50,597 nucleotides of DNA, taken from a virus (lineage: Duplodnaviria; Caudoviricetes). Both the position numbers and the translations under genes were made by a program. The notes below the pieces were generated by a model. The model did no database searches and was not told the DNA's origin. It was given only the letters and a program-made list of their open reading frames with translations. The DNA lies in the IMG/VR virus record IMGVR_UViG_3300021964_000106, positions 1 through 50,597 of that record; one strand, given 5' to 3'. Shown in pieces: positions 9,101 through 41,582 of the stretch. The first letter of the stretch is position 1. Every line of letters starts with the position of its first letter.

Positions 9101-9222
9101 TATTTATCCTTTTTGAATATACGATCCCAGTTTTGTGCATACTGTTCACGCGACACCTGACTTTTGCGGGGTCTGCCCCTGTGTTTATTTCTAGCTTTTA
9201 AATTTATGCCTTTCTTTCTCAT
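9100..9222 (-). CDS. Small basic protein, 40 aa (NWDRIF motif)
   Basis: Hand-translated MRKKGINLKARNKHRGRPRKSQVSREQYAQNWDRIFKKDK; TAATG overlap with adaptor start; motif shared with 33250..33402. Confidence 0.55.
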   Translation of the reverse strand: MRKKGINLKARNKHRGRPRKSQVSREQYAQNWDRIFKKDK

Positions 9223-9250
9223 AAAAAATGGGGGCAGTTTCCCACCCCCA
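9223..9250 (-). terminator. Intrinsic terminator after major capsid gene
   Basis: Minus strand TGGGGGTGG-GAAA-CTGCCCCCA-TTTTTT: GC-rich stem, GNRA loop, U6 tract. Confidence 0.8.
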
Positions 9251-9265
9251 CCTTCCTATCAACTA

Positions 9266-10252
9266 TTAGTCAATAATGTAATACGCACCGACCATTGCTT
9301 CGGGACGTAATACTTTTACACCGTGAACATGAAGACCACGAACGATATCACCGAAAGATGATGGATCGCGGATTACTTCAGTGTTAACGATAGTCTGTGC
9401 AGTAGCAGTAGCAGACATATGACCAGCAAGACAGATACCTGTGGCATTTGACTGTGAAGGCATATTGTTAGTCTTGTACATGCTAAAGCCACGCAGCTTA
9501 CCTTCAGCTACTAGACCATTCCTGATGGAACCCTGTCCACCATTGTAGTCTACTGACAGCAGTTTAGAATCTGTCTGAGACAGTTCTTCATAGAAGTCAG
9601 GAGAAGCTACAAAGTAACGACCTTCTTCAGGTACGCTCTGCTCGTCAAGAAGACGGGCCATACGTGCCATAAGATCCAAAGGATCGGTTTCACTAGCAAC
9701 GCCAAGGTCTACTGCGCCAGCACCATCATAAACACCAGCACCAAGAGCAGTCGCAGAATCAGCACCAAGGATGTGATTCGGGGTAGCAGCGGAAAGACCA
9801 GCAACCATTTTGGTAAACACATTTTCGTCAAATGCATCACGCAGTGAATAAGCAGCAGAAGAAGCTGCAACTTCACGCCAGTTTACATGAGACATGTTGC
9901 TTTCAATATCATCAACGATGAACTTGAAGGCGTTAGCTGTGTCAACGACCAGAGTAACTTCCTGATCTGTCAACTTGGTTGATGTTACATCCTGACCACG
10001 CTCGTACTGATAAACAGTAATAGTTGGTTCTTTGATGATTTTTACAGAATCCCCATAAGCGGAAATCTCACCAGCGTAGTCAGTGTTAGTGACTGCTTCA
10101 GCAACCGCTGCCTTTCGGAAGAAGTTAAGTACCTTCTTACTATAGACGGCAGGCAGGAAGAATGAATTGGTTTGACCACTTACGGAGTTACCAAAGTTAG
10201 CATCGGTATCTGTACTCGGTTCAAAAAACTGATCGGCCTGATTATAAGCCAT
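9266..10252 (-). CDS. Major capsid protein
   Basis: FLPAVYSKKVLNFFRK..V...TNTDYAGEI...GDSVKIIKEP and FGDIVRGLHVHG.KVLRPEA motifs; GAGG RBS; follows scaffold; followed by terminator. Confidence 0.92.
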   Translation of the reverse strand: MAYNQADQFFEPSTDTDANFGNSVSGQTNSFFLPAVYSKKVLNFFRKAAVAEAVTNTDYAGEISAYGDSVKIIKEPTITVYQYERGQDVTSTKLTDQEVTLVVDTANAFKFIVDDIESNMSHVNWREVAASSAAYSLRDAFDENVFTKMVAGLSAATPNHILGADSATALGAGVYDGAGAVDLGVASETDPLDLMARMARLLDEQSVPEEGRYFVASPDFYEELSQTDSKLLSVDYNGGQGSIRNGLVAEGKLRGFSMYKTNNMPSQSNATGICLAGHMSATATAQTIVNTEVIRDPSSFGDIVRGLHVHGVKVLRPEAMVGAYYIID

Positions 10253-17141: not shown

Positions 17142-17148
17142 ACAGAGT

Positions 17149-17177
17149 ATTATACAGGTTATTTACAGTTTTGTCAA
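17149..17177 (-). promoter_or_regulatory. Consensus sigma70 promoter driving the packaging/structural arm
   Basis: Minus strand TTGACA (17177-17172), 17-nt spacer, TATAAT (17154-17149). Confidence 0.88.
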
Positions 17178-17184
17178 GTATTTC

Positions 17185-17213
17185 TTGACAAAAAGCTAAT
17201 TCAGCTGTATAAT
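17185..17213 (+). promoter_or_regulatory. Consensus sigma70 promoter facing the non-coding region
   Basis: TTGACA (17185-17190), 17-nt spacer, TATAAT (17208-17213). Confidence 0.85.
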
Positions 17214-17468
17214 ATAGATTACTAGCCCCCCGGGGCCACACCTAGTACATGGGCAAGCAGTATTTATAACTTTAAAAGCCCGACCAAAATCCTTAACTCC
17301 CCTAGTAATACCCAGAGTCCCCCACTAGAGTACTGGCGAGTACCCCTACAAGTACTGCCCGCCCGGTCTCTAGAAGACCCGCCCAAACTGATTAACACCC
17401 TAACCTGCGCAAATTGTATATGATTTAGTATATATATGGGGGGTAGCCCCATGGCCTCCTGCCCACCC

Positions 17469-17809
17469 CCTTAGTCTTGGAAGACTAAGGTGGTGTTGTA
17501 GACCTTGAAAGTAACTTTAGTTACTTTTAACCTCTAAAGCTTTGCTTTAGGACTCCACCAACTACTCAATCATCCTGATTGAGAACTTTCCAGACCTCTC
17601 AGACCTCTAAAGCTCTGCTTTAGGATTAGCTAGTTACCAAAGGATTTAAGAATCCTTTGAATTGTTAAAGTAAAACTTTAACCTAGACAGATTCCAAAGG
17701 AATCAGTAGCTTACAGAGTTATTTGCCCCAACTTAAAACTCTTAAACGAGTTTTAAAAAACCCCGCCAAAAACCTCTCCTCACCCGCGCATACCTGCACA
17801 TGATGCAGG
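17469..17809. repeat. Array of about 10 short perfect inverted repeats
   Basis: Stems of 6-10 bp with 2-6 nt loops, listed in findings; includes direct repeat ACCTCTAAAGCT(T/C)TGCTTTAGGA at 17530 and 17603. Confidence 0.9.
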
Positions 17810-17868
17810 GTTTCTTCGCCTGTTTTAGTGTGCATTATGCGCAGGAAAAATCACGCACCAGAAACTTG

Positions 17869-17898
17869 TTGACACTTTTTGGAATCTGTGAGTTTAAT
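17869..17898 (+). promoter_or_regulatory. Probable sigma70 early promoter
   Basis: TTGACA (17869-17874), 18-nt spacer, TTTAAT; about 65 nt upstream of first early ATG. Confidence 0.55.
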
Positions 17899-17963
17899 GT
17901 TTAGGCCTCGGCAAATTGGGGCAACAAAAACTAAAACACACACAACTCCAAAGGAGCATACAC

Positions 17964-18488
17964 ATGAAAGCAACATCCAAGTCATTCGCTAACATTGACA
18001 ACAACCGTCTTGCAACTGCAAAGCAGTTCTTCAGGGTTACCGTACACCACGCTAATCTCGTTAAAGACGAGATGAACATCCCTGAAAAATACTTTTTCAG
18101 ACTCCGTAAGCAAGTTGAAGCAGTACTTGCCCGAAACAACCCTAAAGGGTTGACTCATGGCGATGTGCAGAAGTTTCTAGCTTCAAAGAAGCTACCGAAG
18201 TATTTAATTGCAAACTTGCAGATACTCACCCTTGTTGAGCCGAAGGCTGAAGAACAACCGAAGGTTGCCAAGAAAGCCCCAGCAAAGCCGAAGGCTAAGG
18301 CTAAAGCCAAGCCGAAGGCTGTTAAGACTCAGCCAGAGGCTGTTAAGACTCAGCCGAAGGCTCCGGAGTTTAATCAAGAATTTGATGCCCGTCTGACCTT
18401 CCTTGAAGGTGAAGTCAGCGTCATGTCAGAAGACATCCAGACTATCAAGTCTGGCATGGAAATGATTCTGGAAACCCTGAAGGGTTAA
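17964..18488 (+). CDS. First early gene; Lys/Ala/Pro-rich linker and C-terminal coiled coil
   Basis: AAGGAG RBS at 17951-17956; PKVAKKAPAKPKAKAKAKPK segment; heptad-like C-terminus. Confidence 0.75.
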   Translation: MKATSKSFANIDNNRLATAKQFFRVTVHHANLVKDEMNIPEKYFFRLRKQVEAVLARNNPKGLTHGDVQKFLASKKLPKYLIANLQILTLVEPKAEEQPKVAKKAPAKPKAKAKAKPKAVKTQPEAVKTQPKAPEFNQEFDARLTFLEGEVSVMSEDIQTIKSGMEMILETLKG

Positions 18489-18533
18489 TTTAAAATTCAC
18501 GGCCAAGGACGGCCTAAACTCAAGGAGTTTAAA

Positions 18534-18692
18534 ATGGTAGTTTTAAAATTATTTAATTTAATATTTAATCGCCAATGCAAGTTAGTTGAAATTAAATCAA
18601 TAAGAAAATCAAGGAGTTATGCCAGATCAGGCTACTACCACTACATTGTAGTGAACAACACCCAGTACGTTTTCAGAGAGTTTATAATTTAA
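18534..18692 (+). CDS. Hypothetical early protein (52 aa)
   Basis: AAGGAG RBS at 18522-18527; hand-translated MVVLKLFNLIFNRQCK... Confidence 0.55.
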   Translation: MVVLKLFNLIFNRQCKLVEIKSIRKSRSYARSGYYHYIVVNNTQYVFREFII

Positions 18693-18705
18693 TTTAATTT
18701 TAAAT

Positions 18706-18768
18706 GGGTTATAATTATCTCTCAAAGGTTTTTGAGAGAGATAATTAAACCCCCAAAGCCGAAGGAGG
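18706..18768 (+). repeat. Early stem-loop/RBS element, copy 1 (variant)
   Basis: TAATTATCTCTC-AAAGGTTTTTGA-GAGAGATAATTA followed by AACCCCCAAAGCCGAAGGAGG. Confidence 0.9.
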
Positions 18769-18775
18769 CAACAGC

Positions 18776-18961
18776 ATGACCACAGCAACAGATCAAGCGA
18801 AGGGCAATTTTGGAGAATTAAAATTTATTGTGGGAAGCACAATAGAAGAATTAAAAAACGCAAGGATTGCGTTGTCTTACAACGATCCAGAAAGGTGGAA
18901 CCGAATAGCAGACACCCTGCTGGAAAGAAGCATTGAGAATTTAGAAAAATCAATTAAATAA
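18776..18961 (+). CDS. Hypothetical early protein
   Basis: 61 aa ORF with GGAGG RBS, between repeat copies 1 and 2. Confidence 0.7.
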   Translation: MTTATDQAKGNFGELKFIVGSTIEELKNARIALSYNDPERWNRIADTLLERSIENLEKSIK

Positions 18962-18971
18962 ATAAATAAAA

Positions 18972-19025
18972 GGGTGTTTATATATCTCAAAGGTTTTTGA
19001 GAGATATATAAACCCCCCAAAGGAG
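18972..19025 (+). repeat. Early stem-loop/RBS element, copy 2
   Basis: GGGTGTTTATATATCTC-AAAGGTTTTTGA-GAGATATATAAACCCCCCAAAGGAG. Confidence 0.95.
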
Positions 19026-19034
19026 AAAAGCACC

Positions 19035-19241
19035 ATGCTAGTTTTAGATTACCCCAGCAAAAAAGAACTTAAAGAAAACATTGGCGAGTCGCTTTGTTAC
19101 ATGGAAACTTCCATGTTCGGCCCAGAATATAAGTCAGATGGGACATTCTGTGGCTGTAACCGACCTCATATTACTGGTCACAAGCGGGAGTTTTTCGCTG
19201 AAGTTACTATGAAAGATGGCAAGATTTTTAAAGTTAGTTAA
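19035..19241 (+). CDS. Hypothetical early protein
   Basis: 68 aa YPSKKELKE.IG..L.Y.ETSMFGPEY...REFFA.V.MKDG.I.KV; RBS supplied by repeat. Confidence 0.75.
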   Translation: MLVLDYPSKKELKENIGESLCYMETSMFGPEYKSDGTFCGCNRPHITGHKREFFAEVTMKDGKIFKVS

Positions 19242-19249
19242 TTTTAAAT

Positions 19250-19302
19250 GGGGTTTATATATCTCAAAGGTTTTTGAGAGATATATAAACCCCCCAAAGG
19301 AG
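19250..19302 (+). repeat. Early stem-loop/RBS element, copy 3
   Basis: GGGGTTTATATATCTC-AAAGGTTTTTGA-GAGATATATAAACCCC (16-bp perfect stem) then CCAAAGGAG. Confidence 0.95.
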
Positions 19303-19308
19303 TACGGC

Positions 19309-19518
19309 ATGATTACTTTAACTAAAATTAGTTTGCTAACTGGTAACACTAACAAAATAGTGTTGCCAATAACTCAAGATGAATATGACAAAGCTGAACA
19401 AGCTAGAAAAGGAGGTATGTACATACAAGATGCTTACCCTACTCTCACAGCAGATCAAAGAGAGTTTTTAATAAGCGGAGCAACCCCAGAAGAATGGGAT
19501 AAGTTTTTTAATGTATAA
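19309..19518 (+). CDS. Hypothetical early protein
   Basis: Start MITLTKISLL after repeat RBS; IQDAYPTLTADQREFLISG.TPEEWD motif seen in small phage proteins. Confidence 0.75.
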   Translation: MITLTKISLLTGNTNKIVLPITQDEYDKAEQARKGGMYIQDAYPTLTADQREFLISGATPEEWDKFFNV

Positions 19519-19540
19519 ATTAAACTAAAGGAGACACGGC

Positions 19541-20353
19541 ATGAATTTCAACACACTAAAAGAAATCACCCGATCAAAATCAATATTCAAAGCAGTAGCA
19601 TCAGCATATAAACAGGAAGATAAGCAAGGCTGGCGTAAAGCAATGCTAAAATTTATGCGCTGGTTAAAAAGAGATAGTGCTGGTTGGTCAGTTATGATGA
19701 AAAAGGGCAACAGCAAACAGCAGTTTTTATCCTTCAGTAGCTTACCTGAAGTAAGCTGTCCCGGTGCTGGTGCTTGTCTCAAGTTTTGTTATAGCTTTAG
19801 AGCTTGGAGATATCCCGATGCATTTTTTAGACAATTACAAAACTATGTTTTGATGCAAACAGCTGAAGGTAGAGCCAAGATACTTGAAGACTTAGACAAG
19901 TATAAATCAGACAAACCAGTAGACTTTAGGTTATATGTTGATGGCGACTTTGCTAATGTTTCAGAAGTTACCTTCTGGATGGAAGCCTTGAAAGACCGCC
20001 CTTGGTTAAAAGCCTACGGCTACTCTAAATCTTGGGAAGAGTTGTTAGCTTACAAGGGCGAATGGCCTAGTAATTATAAATTAAATTTGTCTTCCGGTAG
20101 CAAGCATGATGCTGAGTTAAAAGCTAAGGTTAAAGCTTTACCAGTTACAAGGGGCAGTTTTGTAGCGGTAGATGTTGGTTATAAAGTAACCAGTGATATG
20201 CATGGCGATAGAAAACATCAGAGTTTTCTCAGAAAACTATATGGTATTAAAGCCTTCACCTGCCCCGGAAAATGTAATACTTGTACCCCAAAAGGTCATG
20301 CTTGTGGATCAGATAGATTCCAAGGCATGGATATAATAATTGCAACGCATTAA
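19541..20353 (+). CDS. GP88-like protein (Cys-rich, radical-SAM-like)
   Basis: GNSK..F.SFS.LP..SCPGAGACLKFCY, FRLYVDGDF, YGYSKS, C-terminal CPGKCNTC...C...IATH. Confidence 0.75.
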   Translation: MNFNTLKEITRSKSIFKAVASAYKQEDKQGWRKAMLKFMRWLKRDSAGWSVMMKKGNSKQQFLSFSSLPEVSCPGAGACLKFCYSFRAWRYPDAFFRQLQNYVLMQTAEGRAKILEDLDKYKSDKPVDFRLYVDGDFANVSEVTFWMEALKDRPWLKAYGYSKSWEELLAYKGEWPSNYKLNLSSGSKHDAELKAKVKALPVTRGSFVAVDVGYKVTSDMHGDRKHQSFLRKLYGIKAFTCPGKCNTCTPKGHACGSDRFQGMDIIIATH

Positions 20354-20369
20354 AATTAATTAATATAAA

Positions 20370-20423
20370 GGGTGTTTATATATCTCAAAGGTTTTTGAGA
20401 GATATATAAACCCCCCAAAGGAG
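20370..20423 (+). repeat. Early stem-loop/RBS element, copy 4
   Basis: Identical to copy 2 over 54 nt. Confidence 0.95.
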
Positions 20424-20431
20424 ACAGCGAC

Positions 20432-25026: not shown

Positions 25027-25073
25027 GTTCCCCTCACCTTCTACCTGTTACTCCTTGCAGGTAGTTGACCTTT

Positions 25074-25103
25074 GGGGGGGCTTTCATAGCCCCCCCTTTT
25101 TTT
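25074..25103 (+). terminator. Intrinsic terminator between SSB unit and primase-helicase
   Basis: GGGGGGGCT-TTCAT-AGCCCCCCC-TTTTTTT. Confidence 0.9.
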
Positions 25104-25118
25104 CACGAGGAAACTTAT

Positions 25119-26777
25119 ATGGCATTTATAAAAACACATGTCTACTGCCCTAACTGTAAAGGTTCAGATCCGGCAGCAATAAATGAGGATGGCTCAGCCT
25201 ATTGTTTTAGTTGCAGTGCATACATAAAAAATTATAACGAAGCTACTAAAGGTGAGGAATCTATGGCTAGCACAAAACAAGTATCGCTTGGTACAGTATT
25301 TAATAGTACCAGCGAATTCAACGCCCTGACTGATCGGGGCATCTCTCTAGAAACCGCTAAGTTTTTTGGGGTTAAATCTTCCAAGAATACTCAGGGTAAA
25401 ATCATCTCACATTCTTATCCCTACTATGTTGCCAACGAGGTAGCTGGTTACAAGTTGCGTGAGCCTAACAAGATGTTTTCTTGGAAGGGTACATCTATAG
25501 GCACTGGCTTGTTCGGTCAGAATTTATTTTCTGAAGGTGCTGCAAAGCGGATTACTATTACTGAAGGTGAGTGTGATGCGATGGCATCTTATGAAATGCA
25601 AGGTTCAAAATGGCCTGTAGTTTCCCTGAAGAATGGTGCAGCAGGTGCGGAGCGCGATGTCAAACAGTCACTAGAGTTTTTAGAAAGATATCAAGAAGTA
25701 GTTATCAACTTTGATAACGATCAGCCGGGACGAGAAGCTGCACGTAAGGTAGCTAGGTTACTCAGTCCGGGTAAGGCAAAGATTCTTTCAATGCCTGAAG
25801 AGTTTAAAGATGCCAATGATATGCTTAGGCAAGGTAAACGTCAGGCATATATGGAAGCTTGGTGGGGTTCAAAGTTATATACTCCAAGCGGTGTTGTTAA
25901 TGCTAGTGAGTGTCTTGACAGCTGGTTAAATCGGGAAGAGAAACCTTCTGTACCTTTCCCTTGGGAAGGTCTCAACAAAAAGCTTTATGGTTTAAGGCGG
26001 GGTGAGTTAGTTACTCTTACTGGTGGTACTGGCTTAGGTAAGTCTAGTGTTACAAGAGAGCTAGAGCATTGGATGCTTACTCAAACTAGAGATAATATTG
26101 GTATCATCGCGCTGGAGGAAAATCAGAATAGAACTATAGACGGACTATGTTCTATTGAAGCTAATGATAAACTCTACATAGATCACATCAGAAAATCATA
26201 TGATCCCGACACACTACGAGATATTCATACTAAGATTATGGGTAACGAAAATACTGGTCGTGTCTGGATATTCTCGCATTTAGGTGTGAATGATGTTGAA
26301 GAGATTTACAGTAAGATAAGATTCATGATTGTAGGTTGCGACTGTAAGTGGATAGTAGTAGACCATCTACACATGCTTGTATCAGCCAGCACTGAAGGCG
26401 ATGAGAGGCGTACTATTGATAGCATCATGCATAGACTACGCTCTATAGTAGAGGAGACAGGAGCAGGTATGATACTGGTCTCCCACTTAAAGAGGGCTGA
26501 AGGTAACAGAGGTCATGAGAACGGCCTGACTGTCAGTCTGAACCATCTTAGAGGTAGTCAGTCTATTGCGCAGCTTAGTGATTGCGTCATTGCTTTAGAG
26601 CGTAACCAGCAGTCAGATGATAAAGACGAGGCCAACACTACATCACTAAGAGTATTGAAATCTAGGTACACTGGTGATGTTGGTAGAGCTTCTGATTTAC
26701 TGTACAATCATGATACAGGTAGGCTCAGTGAAGTATTTCTGGATGAGCTAGATGAGGAGTTAGGGGATATACTATGA
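25119..26777 (+). CDS. DNA primase-helicase (T7 gp4-like)
   Basis: Zn finger CPNC...CFSC, TOPRIM ITEGECD / FDND..G / KDAND, Walker A GGTGLGKS, VVDHL, LRGS.SIAQLSD; GAGG RBS before MAFIK. Confidence 0.95.
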   Translation: MAFIKTHVYCPNCKGSDPAAINEDGSAYCFSCSAYIKNYNEATKGEESMASTKQVSLGTVFNSTSEFNALTDRGISLETAKFFGVKSSKNTQGKIISHSYPYYVANEVAGYKLREPNKMFSWKGTSIGTGLFGQNLFSEGAAKRITITEGECDAMASYEMQGSKWPVVSLKNGAAGAERDVKQSLEFLERYQEVVINFDNDQPGREAARKVARLLSPGKAKILSMPEEFKDANDMLRQGKRQAYMEAWWGSKLYTPSGVVNASECLDSWLNREEKPSVPFPWEGLNKKLYGLRRGELVTLTGGTGLGKSSVTRELEHWMLTQTRDNIGIIALEENQNRTIDGLCSIEANDKLYIDHIRKSYDPDTLRDIHTKIMGNENTGRVWIFSHLGVNDVEEIYSKIRFMIVGCDCKWIVVDHLHMLVSASTEGDERRTIDSIMHRLRSIVEETGAGMILVSHLKRAEGNRGHENGLTVSLNHLRGSQSIAQLSDCVIALERNQQSDDKDEANTTSLRVLKSRYTGDVGRASDLLYNHDTGRLSEVFLDELDEELGDIL

Positions 26778-28531: not shown

Positions 28532-29161
28532 ATGTCTTATTTAGTTGAATGCGAAAACTGTAACGAAGACTTAAAGATACAGCATCTTCACTGGGAAGAA
28601 CTTGTTTGTGCTGAGTGTGGTGATACAGTCAAAAACAACCTACCTGAAATGTATCGTGATTATATTAATCTACAATACAAAGATGGTATCTGGTACTACA
28701 CTGGTAATTCAGATGGAGCTAGGCGTACCCTAGAAGCGCATTTAAAAAAGAATAAGAAACGTATGTATGTAGGGGGTAAGTATGTACCTGTCAGTCATGC
28801 TACTCACAGCCCCGGCAGATTTAAAAACTACAATGACGTAGTATTCAAAGAGTATTACAAAACAAAAGATATAAAAGAAGGTAATGTATATCTTATATCT
28901 AATCCCGCTTGGAACGGCTGGCTTAAAGTTGGCAGGGCTATGTCAGTAGCTGATAGGCTAAATGCTTTTCAAACTGCATCTCCCTATAGAGATTATAAAA
29001 TTGAATACGCTATAGCAGTTGAAGATGCTCCCAAAATAGAAAGGCTTTTACATACTGCGCTGAAAAATAAGTTTCGTTCTAAGTATGAATGGTTTAAACT
29101 GGATGTTTCGGATGCATTAAATATAATAAATGAGGTGATAGATAATGAAGAAAACGATTGA
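28532..29161 (+). CDS. Zn-ribbon plus T5orf172/GIY-YIG-like domain protein
   Basis: CENC...CAEC; GNVYLISN.AW.GWLKVG.A...DRL..FQT.SP...E..LH...EWF. Confidence 0.8.
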   Translation: MSYLVECENCNEDLKIQHLHWEELVCAECGDTVKNNLPEMYRDYINLQYKDGIWYYTGNSDGARRTLEAHLKKNKKRMYVGGKYVPVSHATHSPGRFKNYNDVVFKEYYKTKDIKEGNVYLISNPAWNGWLKVGRAMSVADRLNAFQTASPYRDYKIEYAIAVEDAPKIERLLHTALKNKFRSKYEWFKLDVSDALNIINEVIDNEEND

Positions 29162-34814: not shown

Positions 34815-35151
34815 GACGCACCCCGGTTGTTAAATCATCAAGATGTATAAACCGGGAGCTGCCTTTCTGATTAATTCCTATCCCTGTAAAACCAGCACGA
34901 AGAGCAGCCTCTACTAGCAGGTATGCTTCCGTCCTTGAAACAGCAATATCAATTGCTCTACCACTAGCATGCGCCCCCGGTAAATCTTTCTTAGCTTCTA
35001 TCGGGTGATTGTTGCAGCGGTAAGCACTAGTAACAGGAAAAGGAAAGCCCAGCTCTTCGCGCAGCTGCTCTACCTTTACCATGAAATCTTCCTTCATGCC
35101 TTGGCTTCCGCAATGTGAACATTTTAATTCATCTTCTGTAAAGTACTTCAT
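34795..35151 (-). CDS. Endolysin, peptidase M15A family
   Basis: YF..DELKCSHCG, VTSAYRC..H, H..GRAIDI, FIHLD; start MKYF with ATGA coupling. Confidence 0.9.
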   Translation of the reverse strand: MKYFTEDELKCSHCGSQGMKEDFMVKVEQLREELGFPFPVTSAYRCNNHPIEAKKDLPGAHASGRAIDIAVSRTEAYLLVEAALRAGFTGIGINQKGSSRFIHLDDLTTGVRPTVWSY

Positions 35152-38100
35152 GCTGCACACGCCTTCATTACTTTACCACCATCTGCGCGTTTATTTCTTT
35201 TAGCACAAGCACTCATTATCTTACCACCAGCTGCGCGTTGCTGACGTTTATTGATAATAGCATCATACATTTTTCTACGTTCTTCTTCGGCCTGTTTAGG
35301 ATTGTCATATCCTTTGATCACTCCGCTGTCTATCAGTTTTTTAAACTTCTTTCTAGTTCCACCAGCTGATAGTATTGTACCGCTTTCAGGATCATAGCTA
35401 GGAAGTAAGTACTCTTTGCCATTTACGCCAAGCCCTCTGATATACATTGTTACATCCTTCCCATCCATCTTACCAGCCATGTCACCGCGCACTACTGCAT
35501 CGTGATAGCTTTCTAAAAACTTAAAGTTTTCTGGGTGTATGTAACCGCCCTTAGCATACCCATGTAACTCCTGACTTTGGGCGGGAGTCATATAGCGGGC
35601 TTGCTGTTCATCTATCAGCTTGGTTATACGCTCCTCTGCTTCAGCCCTACTTTTAGCATTCATCGCATAACCTAGATTGTTGTTAAACTGATCCATCTCC
35701 CGTTCGGGGACGTTGGATATAACCTCCCGGGCATTGATCAGGAACTTGGATAACTCAGGTTTTTTAGAACGCTGTGCTAACCAGCCAAGGGCAAGATGTC
35801 GTGCTGCATCTCCCTTCCCGTCCATCTCTTCCCGTTGACCATACTTCATGCCAAGGGAGTTAGCCCATTCTATATCGCTCTTTTCTATGCCAAGGTTGGA
35901 GGCAATACCCCGGCCTACAGCGTTACCCGCTCCCTTCAGTTTGTTGGCTGTAATTTTGAAGATTGACTTCAATATCTTACCGCCTTCGTTGTATCTAGGT
36001 ATTTCTATCTGCTTGTCAGGGAGATCAATAACCAGCCAGCCATCTTCCATTTTAGTTGTAGTGCCAATGTCTTTAGCTATAGACTTAGCAATCTTAGGTA
36101 TCTCTGTTTCGTATCTTTGCTGTACTTCTTCAGATCGTACTAAATCATTAACACCTGAAGGATCAACAGCTATTTCTACACGGTCAAGACCTTCATCGTA
36201 TGCTCTTTGTATTTCACCATAGATACCCCGCTTAACGTATGGGAAGTCTGTTACTGGCATGATATACTCATCACCGAACATATCTTCAAACTCTTTTAGT
36301 TCTTTAATTTCTTCTTTAGTTTTATTAGGCTTATCACGCAGCTTCTTCCCTTTCTTTATTATTTCAGCCCTTTCTATATTACTGTTCAGCTGATCAGACT
36401 GTATCTCAAGTATCCTTACTGCACCATTTTCTACATCAGTTCGTGTATGGAAAGAGAACTCTCCTTCATCACGGAAATGAGTAGATTTACCCATTACACG
36501 AGGATCGTTGTATAGCCTTACTTTATAAGTATCTAGATTTGTGTCGGGAAGAGTAATTTCTGAAAAATCTACTTTTGTTGCGTCTGGCTCAAAGTAATTA
36601 ATGCTGGGTATTTCCCAACTCTCAAGTATCTCACTAAACAACATACCATCAATCTGTTCTGGTACAGTCTCAAATTCCTCTTCTAGATCATCTATAAAAC
36701 CAATGCCTTCATATTCGTCAACACCTTTTGGTGTAAGAGTAACGTCTTCTAAAAATGGTTCTCCGTTATTTCGGATTCCAAGCTTATAATCTTTTACTAG
36801 TCCGTTATCTACAGCCCTGTCCATTTCTACTTTATAGGCGTTTTCTATTGCGTCTAATCTTGCTTGGATAAGTTCTTCTTCAGGAGGTACTACAACCTCT
36901 GGTATGTCATCCATATCAACTTCTCTAACACCAAACTTATTTTTATCTGAACGAGCAGACTTTATAGTGTTTAGAATTTCAGGAGTTAACCTACCTTTTG
37001 TTGATATTTGAGACTTAGGTATTCTACCACCAGCATCATCCAAGTTGTTACCCAGAAACTCAATAGCATCTTTTATTCTAGATGATTCTATTTCTACTTT
37101 AGGTACACCCTGTTTAATTAAAAAATTTTCAAACGACTGAACAGGTATAGGCTGTCCACGCTCAATAAGCTTATCCAAAGCATTATCTAGCTTAGAAACA
37201 ACCTTTGCAGAAGGTGTACCAAAAGCAGTAGCAGGAGGAACAAATGCACCAGAGTCGCTCATAAACGCCTCTACAGCTAACTCCATTTCATTCTCTAACT
37301 CATTAGCTAAGTCCTCATCACCTTCTGCAAGAGCATCATTTATTCTTTCAAGATAGTCAGCTTCTATTTCTTCTTCGGCAGAAATCCGAGGCGTGTCTAT
37401 ATCCCGCGCTTGAATTTCATCCAAAGCATTAGTTATTTCGTAAGTGACATCTTGTGTATCAAAAGGCAATTCATCTGCCAGTTGATTAGCTTTTTTAAAA
37501 GCTTCTATTTCTTCTCGGGTATATCCACGCCAAATACTAAACTCGTCACCACCTATCGGCCCCTGCCATCCCTGTTCTCTCATCTGGTCAACAGTCAAAT
37601 CGTGCTTCTCGTCCAGAAGCGCACGAGCGTTTAACTGTGTAAACTCTTGGACTTTAGGATCGGCAAGTTCTTCAGGGGTGTAGAAACTTTCTATCCTTTT
37701 AGCAGCTGCTTCTGCTGCTTCATCAGATATATTCTTTTTAGAATAAGTTTTAATTATGTTAAATAAGCCTTTACCCAAACCACCCAGAGCAAACCCAACC
37801 CTTTCTTCTGAGTCTACAAAAGCACCACCCGCTTGCTGGTTGTAGGGCAAGCCTGTCATTTTGTCTATACGCTCGTCTGGTTCAACAGGTGCTTGAGGCA
37901 CATCATAGACCTCCCCACCTATAGCCCTTTTAAGTCGGGGGAAATACTCTGATTCCTTCCTTTCATTTTCAGGTTTCTCTAAAGGAGTAGCAATCATATC
38001 TGAATATAAATTGTTTAAGTTCTTTACTAGTGAACTTAAAGTTTCTTCATCTGTAAATTTAACTTTTTGATATATCCTGTATACATCATCAGATGTAATT

Positions 38101-41100
38101 TTTTCGGGCCTGAATCTGTTTGATGTCATCATCAACAGTTCTTCTCTACCTATAGTTATAGAACGGTCACTAATTAATTCTTTTAAAGCCTCATCCCTAC
38201 CCATTATAGTTTCAGCAGATTTTAAAACGCTGTAAAACTCTTGCGCCCTTTTGTAGATTGCATTTTCTCTAGTGTAATAATTAGAGATTACTTCTTCAGC
38301 TGTTGTGCCAAAGCTAGGATTATCAGAAATAATATTTCTTTTTGAATTGGCATATTCTTTAGCTGCAAATATCAACCTGTCTCTTGGATTAACTTCAGTG
38401 AATTTAAAACCAGTAGTATTTGTTATAGCCTCAGAAGCAACAGGAGTTACACTCCCGGTGCTAGGGCTGGGCGTTTCAAATATAGAGTCGGCTACACGTT
38501 CTAAACTAGAAACAGAGCCGGGCAGGAAAGAATTCATTACATGAAAAGTACCATTAAATACTTTATCCCATGTTGATAAACCTTCTTGAAATAAAGCTTT
38601 GCCTTCTCCTGTCCTACCATTTTCATTTTTAGCAGCTACATAAAGGTCAGTTAGGCTCTTTGTAAGAATTGCCTCATCGGTATAAGGAGATAGAATTTTA
38701 AGCACACCCGAGCTAATACCGTCAATTAGATATTCATCTAAATCTTCACCCTGTAACCTACCACTAGTAATTTCGTTGTAGGCTGCAAGTACTGGCTCAG
38801 TAAGTATGCTATAGCTATTAACAAACTGAGTATCCATTGCGAATATTTTATCGTCAAATCTAGCATACACTCTAGGCGCATCTTTTGACCAAGGAGTTTT
38901 GGTAATAGTATCTAAACTTTCTTTTTCTTCAGGTGTCAGCCCCAGCAAGTTTGCACTAGTGGCAGCTAATCCAGACCACATAGTACTAGCAGTACCGAAA
39001 CCAGCAAGTCTTCTCAGCCCTCTATTTCTTAAAACAGAATTACCAGATGTAATTTCTTTGGATGCCTGTCTTACTATATGTGTGCTGTTCCTTATAATTT
39101 CAGAAGGGAACGAAACAAAGCTTCCCACAGGTAGCTGCCGTAATGTTTTTATTCCTTTTGGGACTCTGTCATAATTTGGAAAAGTATTCCTAATAATTTC
39201 AGCAGCCATTTCCTCCAGTTCAGCATCAGGCTTTCCGAGGTTGGCTTTCTTTAGTGTATCTAGTTCTGATAGATAGCCATTAATTTTATAAAAATCGTCT
39301 GTTGCTAAATAAAAGTTTTCAATGGCTTCTCCGGTTTTTTTAATTTTACCCAGCCCATAGCCGTCCATCTTCTTAAAGAATTTATCAACATTACCTTCAA
39401 TAGCACTTTCATAGCCTGTCTCAAGAAGCTTTCTAAATTCATTAACAGATACGTTAGTGTTTATAATTCCAAGCCTCAGATATTTTTCATAAATATCATC
39501 TAGTCCCTGCTGACCTGTTTTTGAAATCTGATTCGCTAAAAGTTTTACTGTGCCAGAAGCTTTATTAAATGGGTTCATCCCATTAGCTAAACCAAACTGC
39601 GCACCACCACTTATGTTTCTTAAATGGGTAACGTGACTAAATACAGTTTTAGATTTCTGAGAATAGCCTTTTAACGAAAGAAAGCTTCTCCAAGCATTAG
39701 AAACCATGTGGTCTTCACCAGTTGGTGAGCCAAGTTTTAAGTAAGATTCCTGCTCTTTTATCGCAGTCAGTATTTCAGGAGTGGTATACTTACCATCAAG
39801 ATTAGAATTGGTTCCTGTAATTTTTACAAAGTTACCTTCTCTAGGTCTCAATGCCCCTTCATCAAAAATATAATTTCCCTGTTTACCCAGCCTTTCTAAG
39901 TTATCAAAAAACTTAGATGTTTCAACCAGCCTTGTCATTTTACTAACAGTTAAGACAATATTTTCTGTAGGTTCTTTGATCTCCCCCATAAAAGCACGGA
40001 GAGGTTCTGGGATATCTTTTTTACCTTTTAATATTTCAGTGTTAACTTTTCTAACTTTAGAATAGTACTCGCCAAGTTCTCCGCTTTTGCTTTTTAATTC
40101 GGGCTTAGAAATTATTTCATCCAGCACATTGTTAGCTTTAACTAAAGCATCATCTTCGGACATTGTTTTTTTGTATTGATTTACTAAGTAATCCTCTGCA
40201 TCTTTTCTAGCAGCAGCTGTAGGTGTGTACCCAGAATCTTCAAACAGACGATAAGACCTGCGCAAATACTGCCCGGTGTTCTCAGCGATAGCTTCTTTTA
40301 ATTCCAAAGGAACAGCATTTGAATTTACAGCTGCTTTTGAAAGATCATCAATTAACATCCTAGCTTCGTAAACAGATTCAGCTACTTCTTTAGTTAGACC
40401 TTCGTCCATTAAATCTACAATAGAAGCTTCTTTAGACTGCTTTTTAATAAAAGACAAATCTGATGTAAGAAGTTCCTGAACTTTATTGTTAACAGCCTGT
40501 GCTTCGTCCAGAGAAGATAAGTTATCTAATTCTATTTTTAACCTGTTACTGATATGCTCTGCCCTGCCAACAGCTGCACGTTGTGCATACTGTGCATCTT
40601 CAAACGCATGAAAAGCTTTAGGTGTCCAGTATCCACGGCTAGTAAATACTTGGTTCATAAAGCGTCTAAGTTTACTACTATTCTGTTGGGCTACTTGAGC
40701 AGCACCTTCAGCAGTCTCATTGTATTCAATCTCAGGACGTTTAATCGGAGACTGTTCTTTAATGTCTTTTACATGATCTAAAATTAGATCGCCTTTTTCA
40801 CTAGATGTCAGATCAGTATAGCTTTTCTTAAACTTGTCTCTTGCAAGCTTAGATACTTTAGCGACTCCCCCTACAATTTCAATAAGGCTACCCAAGGCAA
40901 GACCTTCGCCTAAAAGTTTTATTCTTTTTTCAGCTTCTGTATCATTTTCATCGGTAGCCATATAAGATGAAATTTCCTGTACGGCACTACCTCCCCAACC
41001 AGCTTCTTCTAAAAGATTAAATAAATTTTCAGATGGGTCAGCTAATATTTGATCAACAGCCACGCCAGTAGTGAGACCACCGACAACCGTAGGCAGGGCT

Positions 41101-41582
41101 TTAATTAATTTTGCCCTACCGCCAAGAACAGAACCAGCAACAAAAGTCCCTATTTCCGCACCAACCCCAACTACTTGACCTGTTAATGTTTCTGGCTCTT
41201 TTATGTTACCTTCAGGAGTCCAAAAAGCGTTATACATTTTTTCGGGCAAGTACTGCGTCAGCCTTTCTTTTTCTAAAGGAGTGACACCCTCTCGTGCAGT
41301 AAATTCATAAGGTTTAAAATCCTCACCGGGTTCCCAGCCTGATCCCGGACTCCATTTACCAATTTTCTGTGCTGTGTTAAGAAACACCCGCCCAAAATCA
41401 ACAGCAACACTAGGATCACTAACTTGCTCCTGCTCTTCTACTGCGGGAGATTCTGCTGGTGCTGTTGTTATTTCTTCAGGGTGACGGCCTAAATAGTCAT
41501 TTATAGCTTCTTCATCGGTAAACGAGTCTGGGACATCATTTATAACTTTGCCGTTAGGTAAACGTATGCTTCTTGTAGCCAT
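35148..41582 (-). CDS. Giant internal virion (ejection) protein with modular C-terminus
   Basis: 2144 aa, last of the internal-protein block; helical core (KTVFSHVTHLRN, DDFYKI..Y..E, AAEIIRNTFPNYDRVP, FVSFPSEIIR) plus appended modules. Confidence 0.75.
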   Translation of the reverse strand: MATRSIRLPNGKVINDVPDSFTDEEAINDYLGRHPEEITTAPAESPAVEEQEQVSDPSVAVDFGRVFLNTAQKIGKWSPGSGWEPGEDFKPYEFTAREGVTPLEKERLTQYLPEKMYNAFWTPEGNIKEPETLTGQVVGVGAEIGTFVAGSVLGGRAKLIKALPTVVGGLTTGVAVDQILADPSENLFNLLEEAGWGGSAVQEISSYMATDENDTEAEKRIKLLGEGLALGSLIEIVGGVAKVSKLARDKFKKSYTDLTSSEKGDLILDHVKDIKEQSPIKRPEIEYNETAEGAAQVAQQNSSKLRRFMNQVFTSRGYWTPKAFHAFEDAQYAQRAAVGRAEHISNRLKIELDNLSSLDEAQAVNNKVQELLTSDLSFIKKQSKEASIVDLMDEGLTKEVAESVYEARMLIDDLSKAAVNSNAVPLELKEAIAENTGQYLRRSYRLFEDSGYTPTAAARKDAEDYLVNQYKKTMSEDDALVKANNVLDEIISKPELKSKSGELGEYYSKVRKVNTEILKGKKDIPEPLRAFMGEIKEPTENIVLTVSKMTRLVETSKFFDNLERLGKQGNYIFDEGALRPREGNFVKITGTNSNLDGKYTTPEILTAIKEQESYLKLGSPTGEDHMVSNAWRSFLSLKGYSQKSKTVFSHVTHLRNISGGAQFGLANGMNPFNKASGTVKLLANQISKTGQQGLDDIYEKYLRLGIINTNVSVNEFRKLLETGYESAIEGNVDKFFKKMDGYGLGKIKKTGEAIENFYLATDDFYKINGYLSELDTLKKANLGKPDAELEEMAAEIIRNTFPNYDRVPKGIKTLRQLPVGSFVSFPSEIIRNSTHIVRQASKEITSGNSVLRNRGLRRLAGFGTASTMWSGLAATSANLLGLTPEEKESLDTITKTPWSKDAPRVYARFDDKIFAMDTQFVNSYSILTEPVLAAYNEITSGRLQGEDLDEYLIDGISSGVLKILSPYTDEAILTKSLTDLYVAAKNENGRTGEGKALFQEGLSTWDKVFNGTFHVMNSFLPGSVSSLERVADSIFETPSPSTGSVTPVASEAITNTTGFKFTEVNPRDRLIFAAKEYANSKRNIISDNPSFGTTAEEVISNYYTRENAIYKRAQEFYSVLKSAETIMGRDEALKELISDRSITIGREELLMMTSNRFRPEKITSDDVYRIYQKVKFTDEETLSSLVKNLNNLYSDMIATPLEKPENERKESEYFPRLKRAIGGEVYDVPQAPVEPDERIDKMTGLPYNQQAGGAFVDSEERVGFALGGLGKGLFNIIKTYSKKNISDEAAEAAAKRIESFYTPEELADPKVQEFTQLNARALLDEKHDLTVDQMREQGWQGPIGGDEFSIWRGYTREEIEAFKKANQLADELPFDTQDVTYEITNALDEIQARDIDTPRISAEEEIEADYLERINDALAEGDEDLANELENEMELAVEAFMSDSGAFVPPATAFGTPSAKVVSKLDNALDKLIERGQPIPVQSFENFLIKQGVPKVEIESSRIKDAIEFLGNNLDDAGGRIPKSQISTKGRLTPEILNTIKSARSDKNKFGVREVDMDDIPEVVVPPEEELIQARLDAIENAYKVEMDRAVDNGLVKDYKLGIRNNGEPFLEDVTLTPKGVDEYEGIGFIDDLEEEFETVPEQIDGMLFSEILESWEIPSINYFEPDATKVDFSEITLPDTNLDTYKVRLYNDPRVMGKSTHFRDEGEFSFHTRTDVENGAVRILEIQSDQLNSNIERAEIIKKGKKLRDKPNKTKEEIKELKEFEDMFGDEYIMPVTDFPYVKRGIYGEIQRAYDEGLDRVEIAVDPSGVNDLVRSEEVQQRYETEIPKIAKSIAKDIGTTTKMEDGWLVIDLPDKQIEIPRYNEGGKILKSIFKITANKLKGAGNAVGRGIASNLGIEKSDIEWANSLGMKYGQREEMDGKGDAARHLALGWLAQRSKKPELSKFLINAREVISNVPEREMDQFNNNLGYAMNAKSRAEAEERITKLIDEQQARYMTPAQSQELHGYAKGGYIHPENFKFLESYHDAVVRGDMAGKMDGKDVTMYIRGLGVNGKEYLLPSYDPESGTILSAGGTRKKFKKLIDSGVIKGYDNPKQAEEERRKMYDAIINKRQQRAAGGKIMSACAKRNKRADGGKVMKACAA

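Follow-up and report, generated by a model that had tools for sequence, protein, structure and literature searches.

A kilobase-scale tile of perfect mini-hairpins through the leader and first early gene of an HMO-2011-type marine podovirus

The locus and its hairpin tile

The window, that is, the whole stretch of DNA analyzed here, is the 50,597-base virus record IMGVR_UViG_3300021964_000106 (Duplodnaviria; Caudoviricetes), which is rated 99% complete, and this work concerns a dense run of short, perfect DNA hairpins (the tile) that covers the leader of its early transcription unit and continues through the first early gene (gene 1). The late genes, with the small and large terminase, portal, and major capsid protein, run leftward from 17141, and the early and replication genes, with a T7-like primase-helicase at 25065-26777, a family A DNA polymerase, a Cas4-like exonuclease, and ribonucleotide reductase, run rightward from 17964 to about 34.8 kb. 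In its large terminase, the phage shares 63-66% identity with the Pelagibacter phages HTVC115P, HTVC103P, and HTVC104P and 44-50% identity with Roseobacter CRP phages and the Puniceispirillum phage HMO-2011, and by these identities the source phage is therefore classified as an HMO-2011-type marine podovirus. Near-identical DNA occurs in contigs of sequencing runs spanning 14 studies. Among the isolated phages searched, there was no close relative to the tile region at the DNA level or to the gene 1 protein, and the gene 1 protein as query retrieved 9 viral and 26 metagenome loci (individual relatives are given below as L001, L002, and so on).

Perfect hairpins were counted in 500-nucleotide (nt) bins with a stem of at least 6 bp and a loop of 2-5 nt, and the tile itself was listed with the same stem and loops of 2-6 nt. 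By the first count the whole window contains 105 hairpins, with 8, 8, and 9 in the bins starting at 17501, 18001, and 18501 and mostly 0-2 in the others; by the second, 43 hairpins lie within 17169-20400, at about ten times the background density. The tile starts about 220 nt downstream of a consensus early promoter, covers the 745-nt leader and gene 1, and thins over roughly 2 kb more, for a total length of about 3.2-3.3 kb, compared to the leading ~1 kb named in the earlier note. With stems of at least 5 bp, hairpins cover 57% of the bases in 17436-17810 and 42% in gene 1, compared to 8-11% in three control stretches. The stems are AT-rich, with a mean stem GC of 0.32. The stem motifs AGACT/AGTCT and CTAAAG were followed as a lead to a binding site and dropped, with counts in the window of 9 versus 7.6 expected and 10 versus 3.8 expected, respectively. 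An earlier note on this DNA had listed hairpins in and just after gene 1, and each of them, including the four copies of AGCC-GAA-GGCT, exists at the position given there (Table 1).

The excess of hairpins over chance was assessed by shuffling synonymous codons in 62 open reading frames (ORFs) of the window, a comparison that the earlier note had proposed as a test of its claim. Gene 1 contains 8 hairpins versus 1.24-1.25 expected, a number reached in 0/300 and 0/1000 shuffles, and at a stem of at least 5 bp it contains 14 versus 4.1 expected. No shuffle matched the 3 hairpins of ORF 18776-18961 (0.34 expected) or the 6 of ORF 19541-20353 (1.03 expected), and ORF 19216-19518 has a marginal excess (p = 0.013). 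Further away, the 2144-amino-acid gene at 35148-41582 shows a modest excess (17 versus 9.3, with none of only 60 shuffles matching), and the remaining ORFs among the 62 have hairpin counts at the shuffle expectation. Gene 1 therefore passes this test and stands apart from most of the 62 ORFs, but the excess extends over the leader and the first half-dozen early genes and is not confined to gene 1.

Conservation among relatives and dual coding of gene 1

Selection on the stems was examined in an alignment of eight sequences with 72-99% identity. When the stems were defined from the outgroup L004, 20 of 254 stem columns varied among the five ingroup sequences compared to 200 of 967 other columns (p = 6e-7), i.e., 2.6 times less, and three other choices of the defining sequence gave the same outcome. 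At the third codon positions of gene 1, variation occurred at 4 of 37 stem sites and at 44 of 137 non-stem sites (p = 0.012). The loops vary freely (e.g., TCT to TAC, AAA to GAA, and TAC to TTC), in some cases with non-synonymous changes, while the stems hold. Across 178 pairs in 27 hairpins, 93.1% of the cells pair, and changes on both sides occurred at 19 pairs, compared to 7.4 +/- 1.8 in shuffles (0/500) and 0-7 when the partner columns were slid, although the structure was derived from one aligned sequence and the sequences are few and related. The covariation that the earlier note had looked to in homologues is thus present, and within the leader the hairpins at 17469, 17508, 17607, and 17638 show compensatory changes between relatives.

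A tile of 5-12 hairpins per 500 nt surrounds the gene 1 homologue in L001-L005, L011-L026, and L028, which are independent assemblies with homologues reaching down to 25-43% protein identity, and the tile is weak or absent in L006-L009, L027, and L029-L036. Synonymous shuffling of the homologous genes gave the following: L002, L004, L005, and L021 have 8-14 hairpins versus 1.1-1.6 expected (each 0/1000), L022 has 5 versus 1.2 expected (2/1000), L024-L026 are weak, and no excess was found in the homologues of L007, L008, L009, L029, and L033. The leader of L005 has perfect stems of 12, 17, 23, 16, 14, and 10 bp. Gene 1 of L007 has 57% amino-acid identity to that of L005, and the two have the promoters and the G-run element in common, as well as the terminator hairpin ahead of the gene, in which compensatory changes have occurred; the hairpins of L005 gene 1 arise from both synonymous and amino-acid differences relative to L007. 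Because close relatives with the same framework lack the tile, it is, judging from these genomes, accessory and not essential.

In the gene 1 product, a conserved N-terminal domain of about 80 amino acids, with the motifs RLATAKQF and THGDVQKF, is followed by a Lys/Pro/Ala-rich linker and then by a coiled coil at the C-terminus. Comparison with Pfam, PHROG, Atlas, and PDB sequences gave no family match except coiled-coil matches at the C-terminus, and no DNA-binding or initiator domain was recognized in the family searches. The codons of the linker follow the hairpins closely. The tetrapeptide KPKA is encoded by AAGCCGAAGGCT in 16/16 sites across homologues, even at 25-43% identity; QPKV is encoded by CAA-CCG-AAG-GTT in 8/8 sites, and QPKA uses CAG and GCT in 8/8, so that the Gln codon (CAA or CAG) matches the Val or Ala codon nine bases downstream. 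For the in-frame motif RCC-NNN-GGY in 13 homologous genes, the outer bases are G..C in 30 cases, A..T in 9, and G..T in none, with one off-frame A..C, in rows that include orthologues and represent perhaps four or five independent events. The earlier note had pointed to this exchange of AG..CT for AA..TT, which is real both within the gene and between orthologues. The core CCGAAGG occurs five times in gene 1 (four times in AGCC-GAA-GGCT and once in CAACC-GAA-GGTTG), but the four AGCC-GAA-GGCT copies are not four independent events because they sit in tandem repeat units of 21-48 nt (families D5 and D10). The C-GAA-G type of mini-hairpin, to which the earlier note had drawn attention, is specifically enriched, with C-GNA-G in 5 of 10 triloop hairpins of gene 1 versus 3 of 240 elsewhere in the window.

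A linker rich in Lys, Pro, and Ala is present even in relatives without hairpins, and the basic linker is therefore a protein-level trait. On comparison of these sequences, the exact wording of KPKA goes together with the hairpins and the basic linker itself with the protein. The proposal of the earlier note that the Pro-Lys-Ala repeats are in part a by-product of selection on DNA structure accordingly survives for the wording, since KPKA is always the same 12-mer, and fails for the linker, which hairpin-free relatives also have. Its broader claim of dual coding, in which the codon choices and some amino acids of gene 1 are set by keeping the repeats, is supported by the shuffle test, the conserved synonymous stem sites, the covariation between orthologues, and the tracking of the Val or Ala codon by the Gln codon.

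Other lineages show further variants of this gene and its surroundings. In L021 (1014-1137), the linker-coding region has a different palindrome, AGTCTCT-AA-AGAGACT, inside tandem VSKETP units, and each lineage seems to own a distinct repeated hairpin in the linker region. In L002 (1081-1230; also in L003 and L017), an extra ORF of 49 codons lies between the second promoter and gene 1 and is dense in mini-hairpins, with three C-G-closed GAA loops, one C-G-closed GTA loop, and a fifth GAA loop closed by G-C. The L005 and L007 genomes encode a weak second paralogue of the gene 1 N-terminal domain about 0.6 kb downstream (L005 505-717, record G001).

Strand signature and features of the early region

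Whether the repeats carry the signature of DNA or RNA was evaluated with hairpin statistics from nine or ten representative tiles and, for triloops, with a set from seven lineages (190 hairpins with a stem of at least 4 bp). The tiles contain 259 perfect hairpins compared to 31 with one internal mismatch, and among these 31 the counts of G.T (6) and A.C (2) are too few to decide. One-sided stem changes between orthologues gave G.T in 44 cells and A.C in 43, and the first unpaired flank was GT/TG in 27 cases and AC/CA in 36. The loop is 3 nt in 121 of the 259 hairpins, and the 5' base of the loop-closing pair is C in 55 and G in 4. C-closed triloops make up 84 of 190 in the tiles versus 31 of 240 elsewhere in the window, and they fall into the classes GNA (21), TNC (19), ANA (16), TNT (14), and other (14), compared to 3, 0, 5, 2, and 21 in the background. 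The favored loops are purine-N-A on either strand in equal numbers, and in the non-coding leaders the purine-type loops number 24 on the + strand and 25 on the - strand. Terminator-type hairpins served as an internal control: on the early strand they have GC-rich stems, T-runs, and TTCG loops (9) with no CGAA loops (0). Folding-energy z-scores were similar on both strands, but the terminase gene used as a control also gave -5 to -8, so that these scores were used only as an absence of strand difference.

From the strand symmetry, loop classes, C-G closing pair, and strand-specific terminators taken together, we interpret the tile as a set of DNA hairpins that can be used in either strand. The marks of RNA elements (strand specificity, tolerance of G.U, RNA-type loops, and a U-tract) were absent from the tile hairpins. 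Repetitive extragenic palindromes (REP) and bacterial interspersed mosaic elements (BIME) have one imperfect consensus and are extragenic, and the tile hairpins are instead unrelated to each other, perfect, and largely located in genes. We infer that the repeats were selected as DNA hairpins foldable on either strand and not as mRNA structure or as the sites of one protein.

Table 1. Features of the early region, with positions counted from the first base of the window
Feature	Coordinates	Strand	Remarks
Back-to-back consensus sigma-70 promoters	17149-17213	both	12/12 matches per strand
Rightward promoter	TTGACA at 17185, TATAAT ending 17213	+	
Leftward promoter	TTGACA at 17177, TATAAT ending 17149	-	
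GC hairpin GCCCC-CC-GGGGC	17225-17236	+	A few bases past the predicted + strand start, which is inferred from the -10 box
TATATA, G-run ... GGCCTCCTGCCC element	17429-17468		Near-invariant in alignments A2 and A5; also in L005 and L007
Non-coding leader tile	17436-17809		11 perfect hairpins, stems 6-10 bp, loops 2-6 nt; longest gap 31 nt
Hairpin CCTGCA-CATGA-TGCAGG with T-rich tail	17793-17825	+	Invariant; looks like a terminator (terminator-like scan)
Second promoter-like site	TTGACA 17869-17874, 18-nt spacer, TTTAAT 17893-17898	+	Just upstream of gene 1
Gene 1	17964-18488	+	174 amino acids; ribosome-binding site AAGGAG 17951-17956
Gene 1 hairpins, stem at least 6 bp	18014, 18055, 18082, 18137, 18178, 18396, 18437, 18473		Within 18014-18486; shorter ones also present
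Six RCC-NNN-GGY mini-hairpins	18238-18362		AGCC-GAA-GGCT x4 (18238, 18286, 18310, 18352), CAACC-GAA-GGTTG (18255), CAGCC-AGA-GGCTG (18330); core CCGAAGG
Hairpin TAAACTC-AAG-GAGTTTA	18515-18531		Contains the ribosome-binding site of the next ORF (ATG 18534)
Thinning continuation of the tile	18532-20430		Across five small early ORFs
71-nt repeat, four copies	18691-18761, 18956-19026, 19233-19303, 20354-20424		Long imperfect hairpin, then CCCCCC-AAAGGAG and a start codon

The divergent promoters share a 10-bp palindrome (17169-17193) whose arms are their -35 boxes. L004, L005, and L007 retain the -35 and -10 boxes, and the arrangement is conserved to relatives with 30-40% gene 1 identity. Several metagenome contigs begin exactly at the promoter pair. 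Short metagenome contigs starting at 17142-17160 or stopping near the tile were considered as genome ends and are read as assembly breakage at the promoter palindrome or the repeats. At the equivalent of 17225-17236, L005 and L007 both have a hairpin that contains a + strand G.T pair. Over its first 200 nt, the leader is C-rich, hairpin-poor, and unstructured. A C-rich motif occurs three times in the leader (GCCCGACCAAAA at 17279-17292, CCCGCCCAAAC at 17376-17388, and CCCCGCCAAAAAC at 17762-17774) and might be a site for a protein or for Rho. The hairpin tile starts directly after the element with TATATA and the G-run. Both hexamers of the second promoter-like site are conserved in alignments A2 and A5, but the site falls under the promoter-scan threshold. 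The 71-nt elements flank the small early ORFs, and they are more numerous in L002 and L017, where other ORFs separate the copies; the elements are reminiscent of RNase III sites or of the mobile promoter/stem-loop cassettes of T4-type phages.

Elsewhere in the window, Rfam and tRNA scans gave no match over its whole length. A protein with a T5orf172/MUG113 (GIY-YIG-like) domain is encoded immediately after the DNA polymerase gene (28532-29161, +) and is likely a homing-endonuclease-type insert, and residues 32-60 of a 972-amino-acid protein (44677-47595, -) weakly match Sigma70 region 4, with an E value (4e-4) that falls short of the Pfam cut-off. Metatranscriptome contigs from four RNA runs in three studies lie mainly over the late genes and hardly over the tile; as all 20 runs listed consist of contigs, from which starts, ends, strands, and levels are not readable, no inference was drawn from their distribution.

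Candidate functions and known systems

The tile is real, conserved, and selected. The best explanation, to which we assign a probability of roughly 0.35, is that the hairpins are DNA mini-hairpins resistant to single-stranded DNA-binding protein (SSB) that mark a transcription-activated replication-start zone overlapping the early gene, much as the lambda origin overlaps gene O. The strong divergent promoters would generate negative supercoiling by transcription, and the duplex would open first in the zone behind them. In the opened zone, stable SSB-resistant mini-hairpins of the CCGAAGG or C-GNA-G type could fold and may act as loading, entry, or priming signals for the T7-like primase-helicase of the phage. 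The presence of this enzyme and of a family A polymerase in the window is compatible with such a reading, and a GC-skew switch is located at about 17.5 kb.

Several points weigh against a replication-start zone. The GC-skew switch is not independent evidence of an origin because it coincides with the switch in gene direction, and the zone is placed by a weak analogy. The 'direct terminal repeats' of two relatives were considered and set aside: they are overlaps of 127 and 105 nt, which are typical of circular assembly and are therefore uninformative on genome ends. The primases RepB' and DnaG, on which the analogy draws, differ from the primase family encoded here. The purine-type loops of gene 1 favor the coding strand (34 versus 12), a bias that Lys and Glu codons may explain, and the G.T tests are low in power, with few independent events located mostly at stem ends. 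A functionless process of hairpin-templated copying could also leave such a DNA-type signature. The extent of the tile coincides with that of a transcription unit, as an RNA-level function would predict, and in L005 it stops at a canonical terminator just past gene 1. Finally, L007 has no tile, with ordinary sequence where L005 has palindromes, and the isolate HTVC115P also has none, so that an essential origin function fits poorly. A more general reading, which we hold tentatively and with somewhat more doubt, is a sequence-independent DNA-structure code, in which kilobase-scale, unrelated, strand-agnostic mini-hairpins would dictate codons and the Lys-Pro-Lys-Ala wording and would act via folded single-stranded DNA, as a priming or loading array or as a shield against a host factor active on unwound DNA, being gained and lost like an arms-race trait.

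A rather unlikely alternative is a role at the RNA level, with hairpins that would fold in the immediate-early transcript and might stabilize it against RNases, rid the long untranslated leader of the open stretches needed by Rho or other factors, or prevent backtracking of RNA polymerase. Besides the terminator in L005, it would account for a tile confined to the early side and starting downstream of the predicted transcript start, for the 5'-proximal hairpin with its + strand G.T pair in L005 and L007, for leader gaps that never exceed 31 nt, and for the long intergenic 71-nt hairpins that precede ribosome-binding sites and resemble RNA processing sites. However, none of the measures above is asymmetric between strands: the G.T and A.C changes (44:43), the flanks, and the folding z-scores are alike, the complementary loop classes are equal in the tiles and in the leaders, and the true terminators of the same phages are different and strand-specific. 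The C-rich, unstructured start of the leader is also a poor fit to protection from Rho. Strand symmetry is equally expected if the hairpins are a mutational by-product of hairpin-templated strand switching (quasi-palindrome correction or snap-back synthesis) in DNA that is often single-stranded, with little or no function, and stable DNA loops would favor this process. It would further explain why the stems are nearly always perfect, even at 12-23 bp in the L005 leader, where selection for stability would tolerate mismatches, why double 'compensatory' changes come in one step, and why turnover between L005 and L007 is fast. We nevertheless consider it improbable, as conversion alone does not predict stems that are 2.6-3 times less variable than flanking or third-codon sites, and the hairpins are partly built from amino-acid changes in a conserved gene. 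Moreover, the same zone is tiled by different hairpins in lineages of 25-43% identity, and a persistent local cause is therefore needed.

Two explanations invoke a dedicated protein partner. The AGCC-GAA-GGCT palindromes in the linker-coding region could be iteron-like sites for a dimeric protein, possibly the gene 1 product, whose conserved N-terminal domain, basic linker, and coiled coil would suit such a role; the same palindrome of 11-13 bp recurs 4-6 times at a spacing of 17-31 nt, and L021 repeats its own palindrome in the same region. This is very unlikely as an account of the tile, since the palindromes cover a minority of it and the other hairpins share no sequence, and since the A..T or G..C half-site change is matched in 39/39 in-frame cases, which base pairing fits better than independent contacts. 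Gene 1 also matches no DNA-binding family, and its N-terminal domain is conserved across lineages with differing repeats. The least credible explanation takes the hairpins as N4-type promoters for an injected RNA polymerase that is specific to hairpins, the analogy that the earlier note had drawn and that does not hold as a mechanism. A subset of the hairpins does have the C-G closing pair and G..A loop ends needed by N4 promoters (PMC4496689), and a 2144-amino-acid protein of unassigned function is encoded at the end of the late arm. However, at the sequence level this protein has no polymerase match in PHROG, Pfam, or PDB sequences and no RxxxK..YG or DxDxD motif, the largest virion-arm proteins likewise have no polymerase match in PHROG or Pfam, and conserved consensus sigma-70 promoters lie upstream of the early genes. 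Dozens of unrelated hairpins in both orientations and inside ORFs also contrast with the three conserved promoters of N4, and in gene 1 it is the coding (non-template) strand that carries the GNA loops. Residues 428-1160 of the 2144-amino-acid protein (35148-41582, -) resemble virion structural proteins of Cellulophaga phages, with otherwise no family match; one homologue in a Pseudoalteromonas phage is annotated as an ADP-ribosyltransferase, and the protein is therefore possibly an ejected multi-domain protein.

Literature searches returned no description of such a tile, which is not proof that it is unpublished, and in the main HMO-2011-type paper (PMC9038755) the terms hairpin, palindrom, stem-loop, promoter, RNA polymerase, and terminal repeat are absent from the main text. 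Mini-hairpins at a few origins and at the N4 promoters are already known as single elements, and a kilobase tile through coding sequence is, as far as checked, new. With dozens of mini-hairpins over 1-3 kb and a coding gene, the locus is a clear example from nature of a protein code and a DNA-structure code that overlap, and selection in the tiled gene can be measured at synonymous sites and in amino acids. It gives a handle on how HMO-2011-type phages, which are among the most abundant marine viruses, begin infection or replication, and the tile-bearing and tile-free relatives provide a natural experiment. It also calls for care when phage early genes are annotated or their synonymous sites are analyzed.

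Known systems share individual traits with the tile. The telomeres of Streptomyces linear replicons and the termini of parvoviruses contain tightly packed palindromes of unrelated sequence, which have purine-purine loops of 3 nt and fold once the DNA is single-stranded, but these palindromes occupy the terminal 200-300 nt, are non-coding, and serve end-patching, whereas relatives of the present phage assemble as circles. In the lambda origin, four iterons of one sequence lie inside gene O and are bound by the gene's own product. The likeness to lambda is in a cis-acting element of small inverted repeats recurring in the linker-coding part of an early gene by strong early transcription, and the difference is that the hairpins here are mostly unique and that no initiator domain was recognized in gene 1. 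Phages T5 and T7 have repeat-rich non-coding DNA in the first-entering part of the genome. The T5 record has the injection stop signal (iss) annotated at 9140-10149 with 4 to 5 hairpins per 500 nt in its bins, and in T7 the first 340 nt at the left end contain 11 direct CTAAAG repeats, with 0-1 hairpins per 500 nt; the repeats of neither phage extend into coding sequence. In the leading region of conjugative plasmids (Frpo/ssi), folded single strands function within the DNA that a new cell expresses first (PMC13478746 and PMC12672017). The plasmid enters single-stranded and each of its elements is one long stem-loop with -35/-10 boxes, while the present phage is double-stranded with ordinary promoters.

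Closer likenesses are found in phage N4 and in single-strand origins. In N4, a C-G closing pair and a loop with 5' G and 3' A give the hairpins their stability and their extrusion at or below physiological supercoiling, including in vivo, and there are three promoters with conserved sequence from -17 to +1 and a GC-rich heptamer at -11 on the template strand ahead of the early genes (PMC4496689). The tile shares the short stems, the 3-nt loops, and the location in the early region of a podovirus, and the N4-type closing pair with 5' G and 3' A occurs in 5 of 10 gene 1 triloops and, over the seven lineages, in 21 (+) and 19 (-) of the 84 C-closed triloops. The hairpin of N4 itself, AAGAAGC-TCC-GCTTCTT, is found at nt 557 of its record. 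N4 differs in needing an injected polymerase of about 3500 amino acids, whereas the present phage has host-type promoters and no such polymerase found by sequence, and the left 6 kb of N4 have 0-4 hairpins per 500 nt compared to 8-9 here. For the RSF1010 ssiA site, CCGAAGG is the mini-hairpin bound by the RepB' primase, and mini-hairpins also occur at the G4 origin; hairpins of this kind keep SSB off, are resistant to nucleases, and mark the sites of primase entry (PMC13037366). Those systems have one to three hairpins at the defined origin of a single-stranded replicon and use RepB' or DnaG, while here a kilobase-scale tile lies in a double-stranded phage; even so, the repeated core of gene 1 is exactly CCGAAGG, and the phage encodes a primase-helicase.

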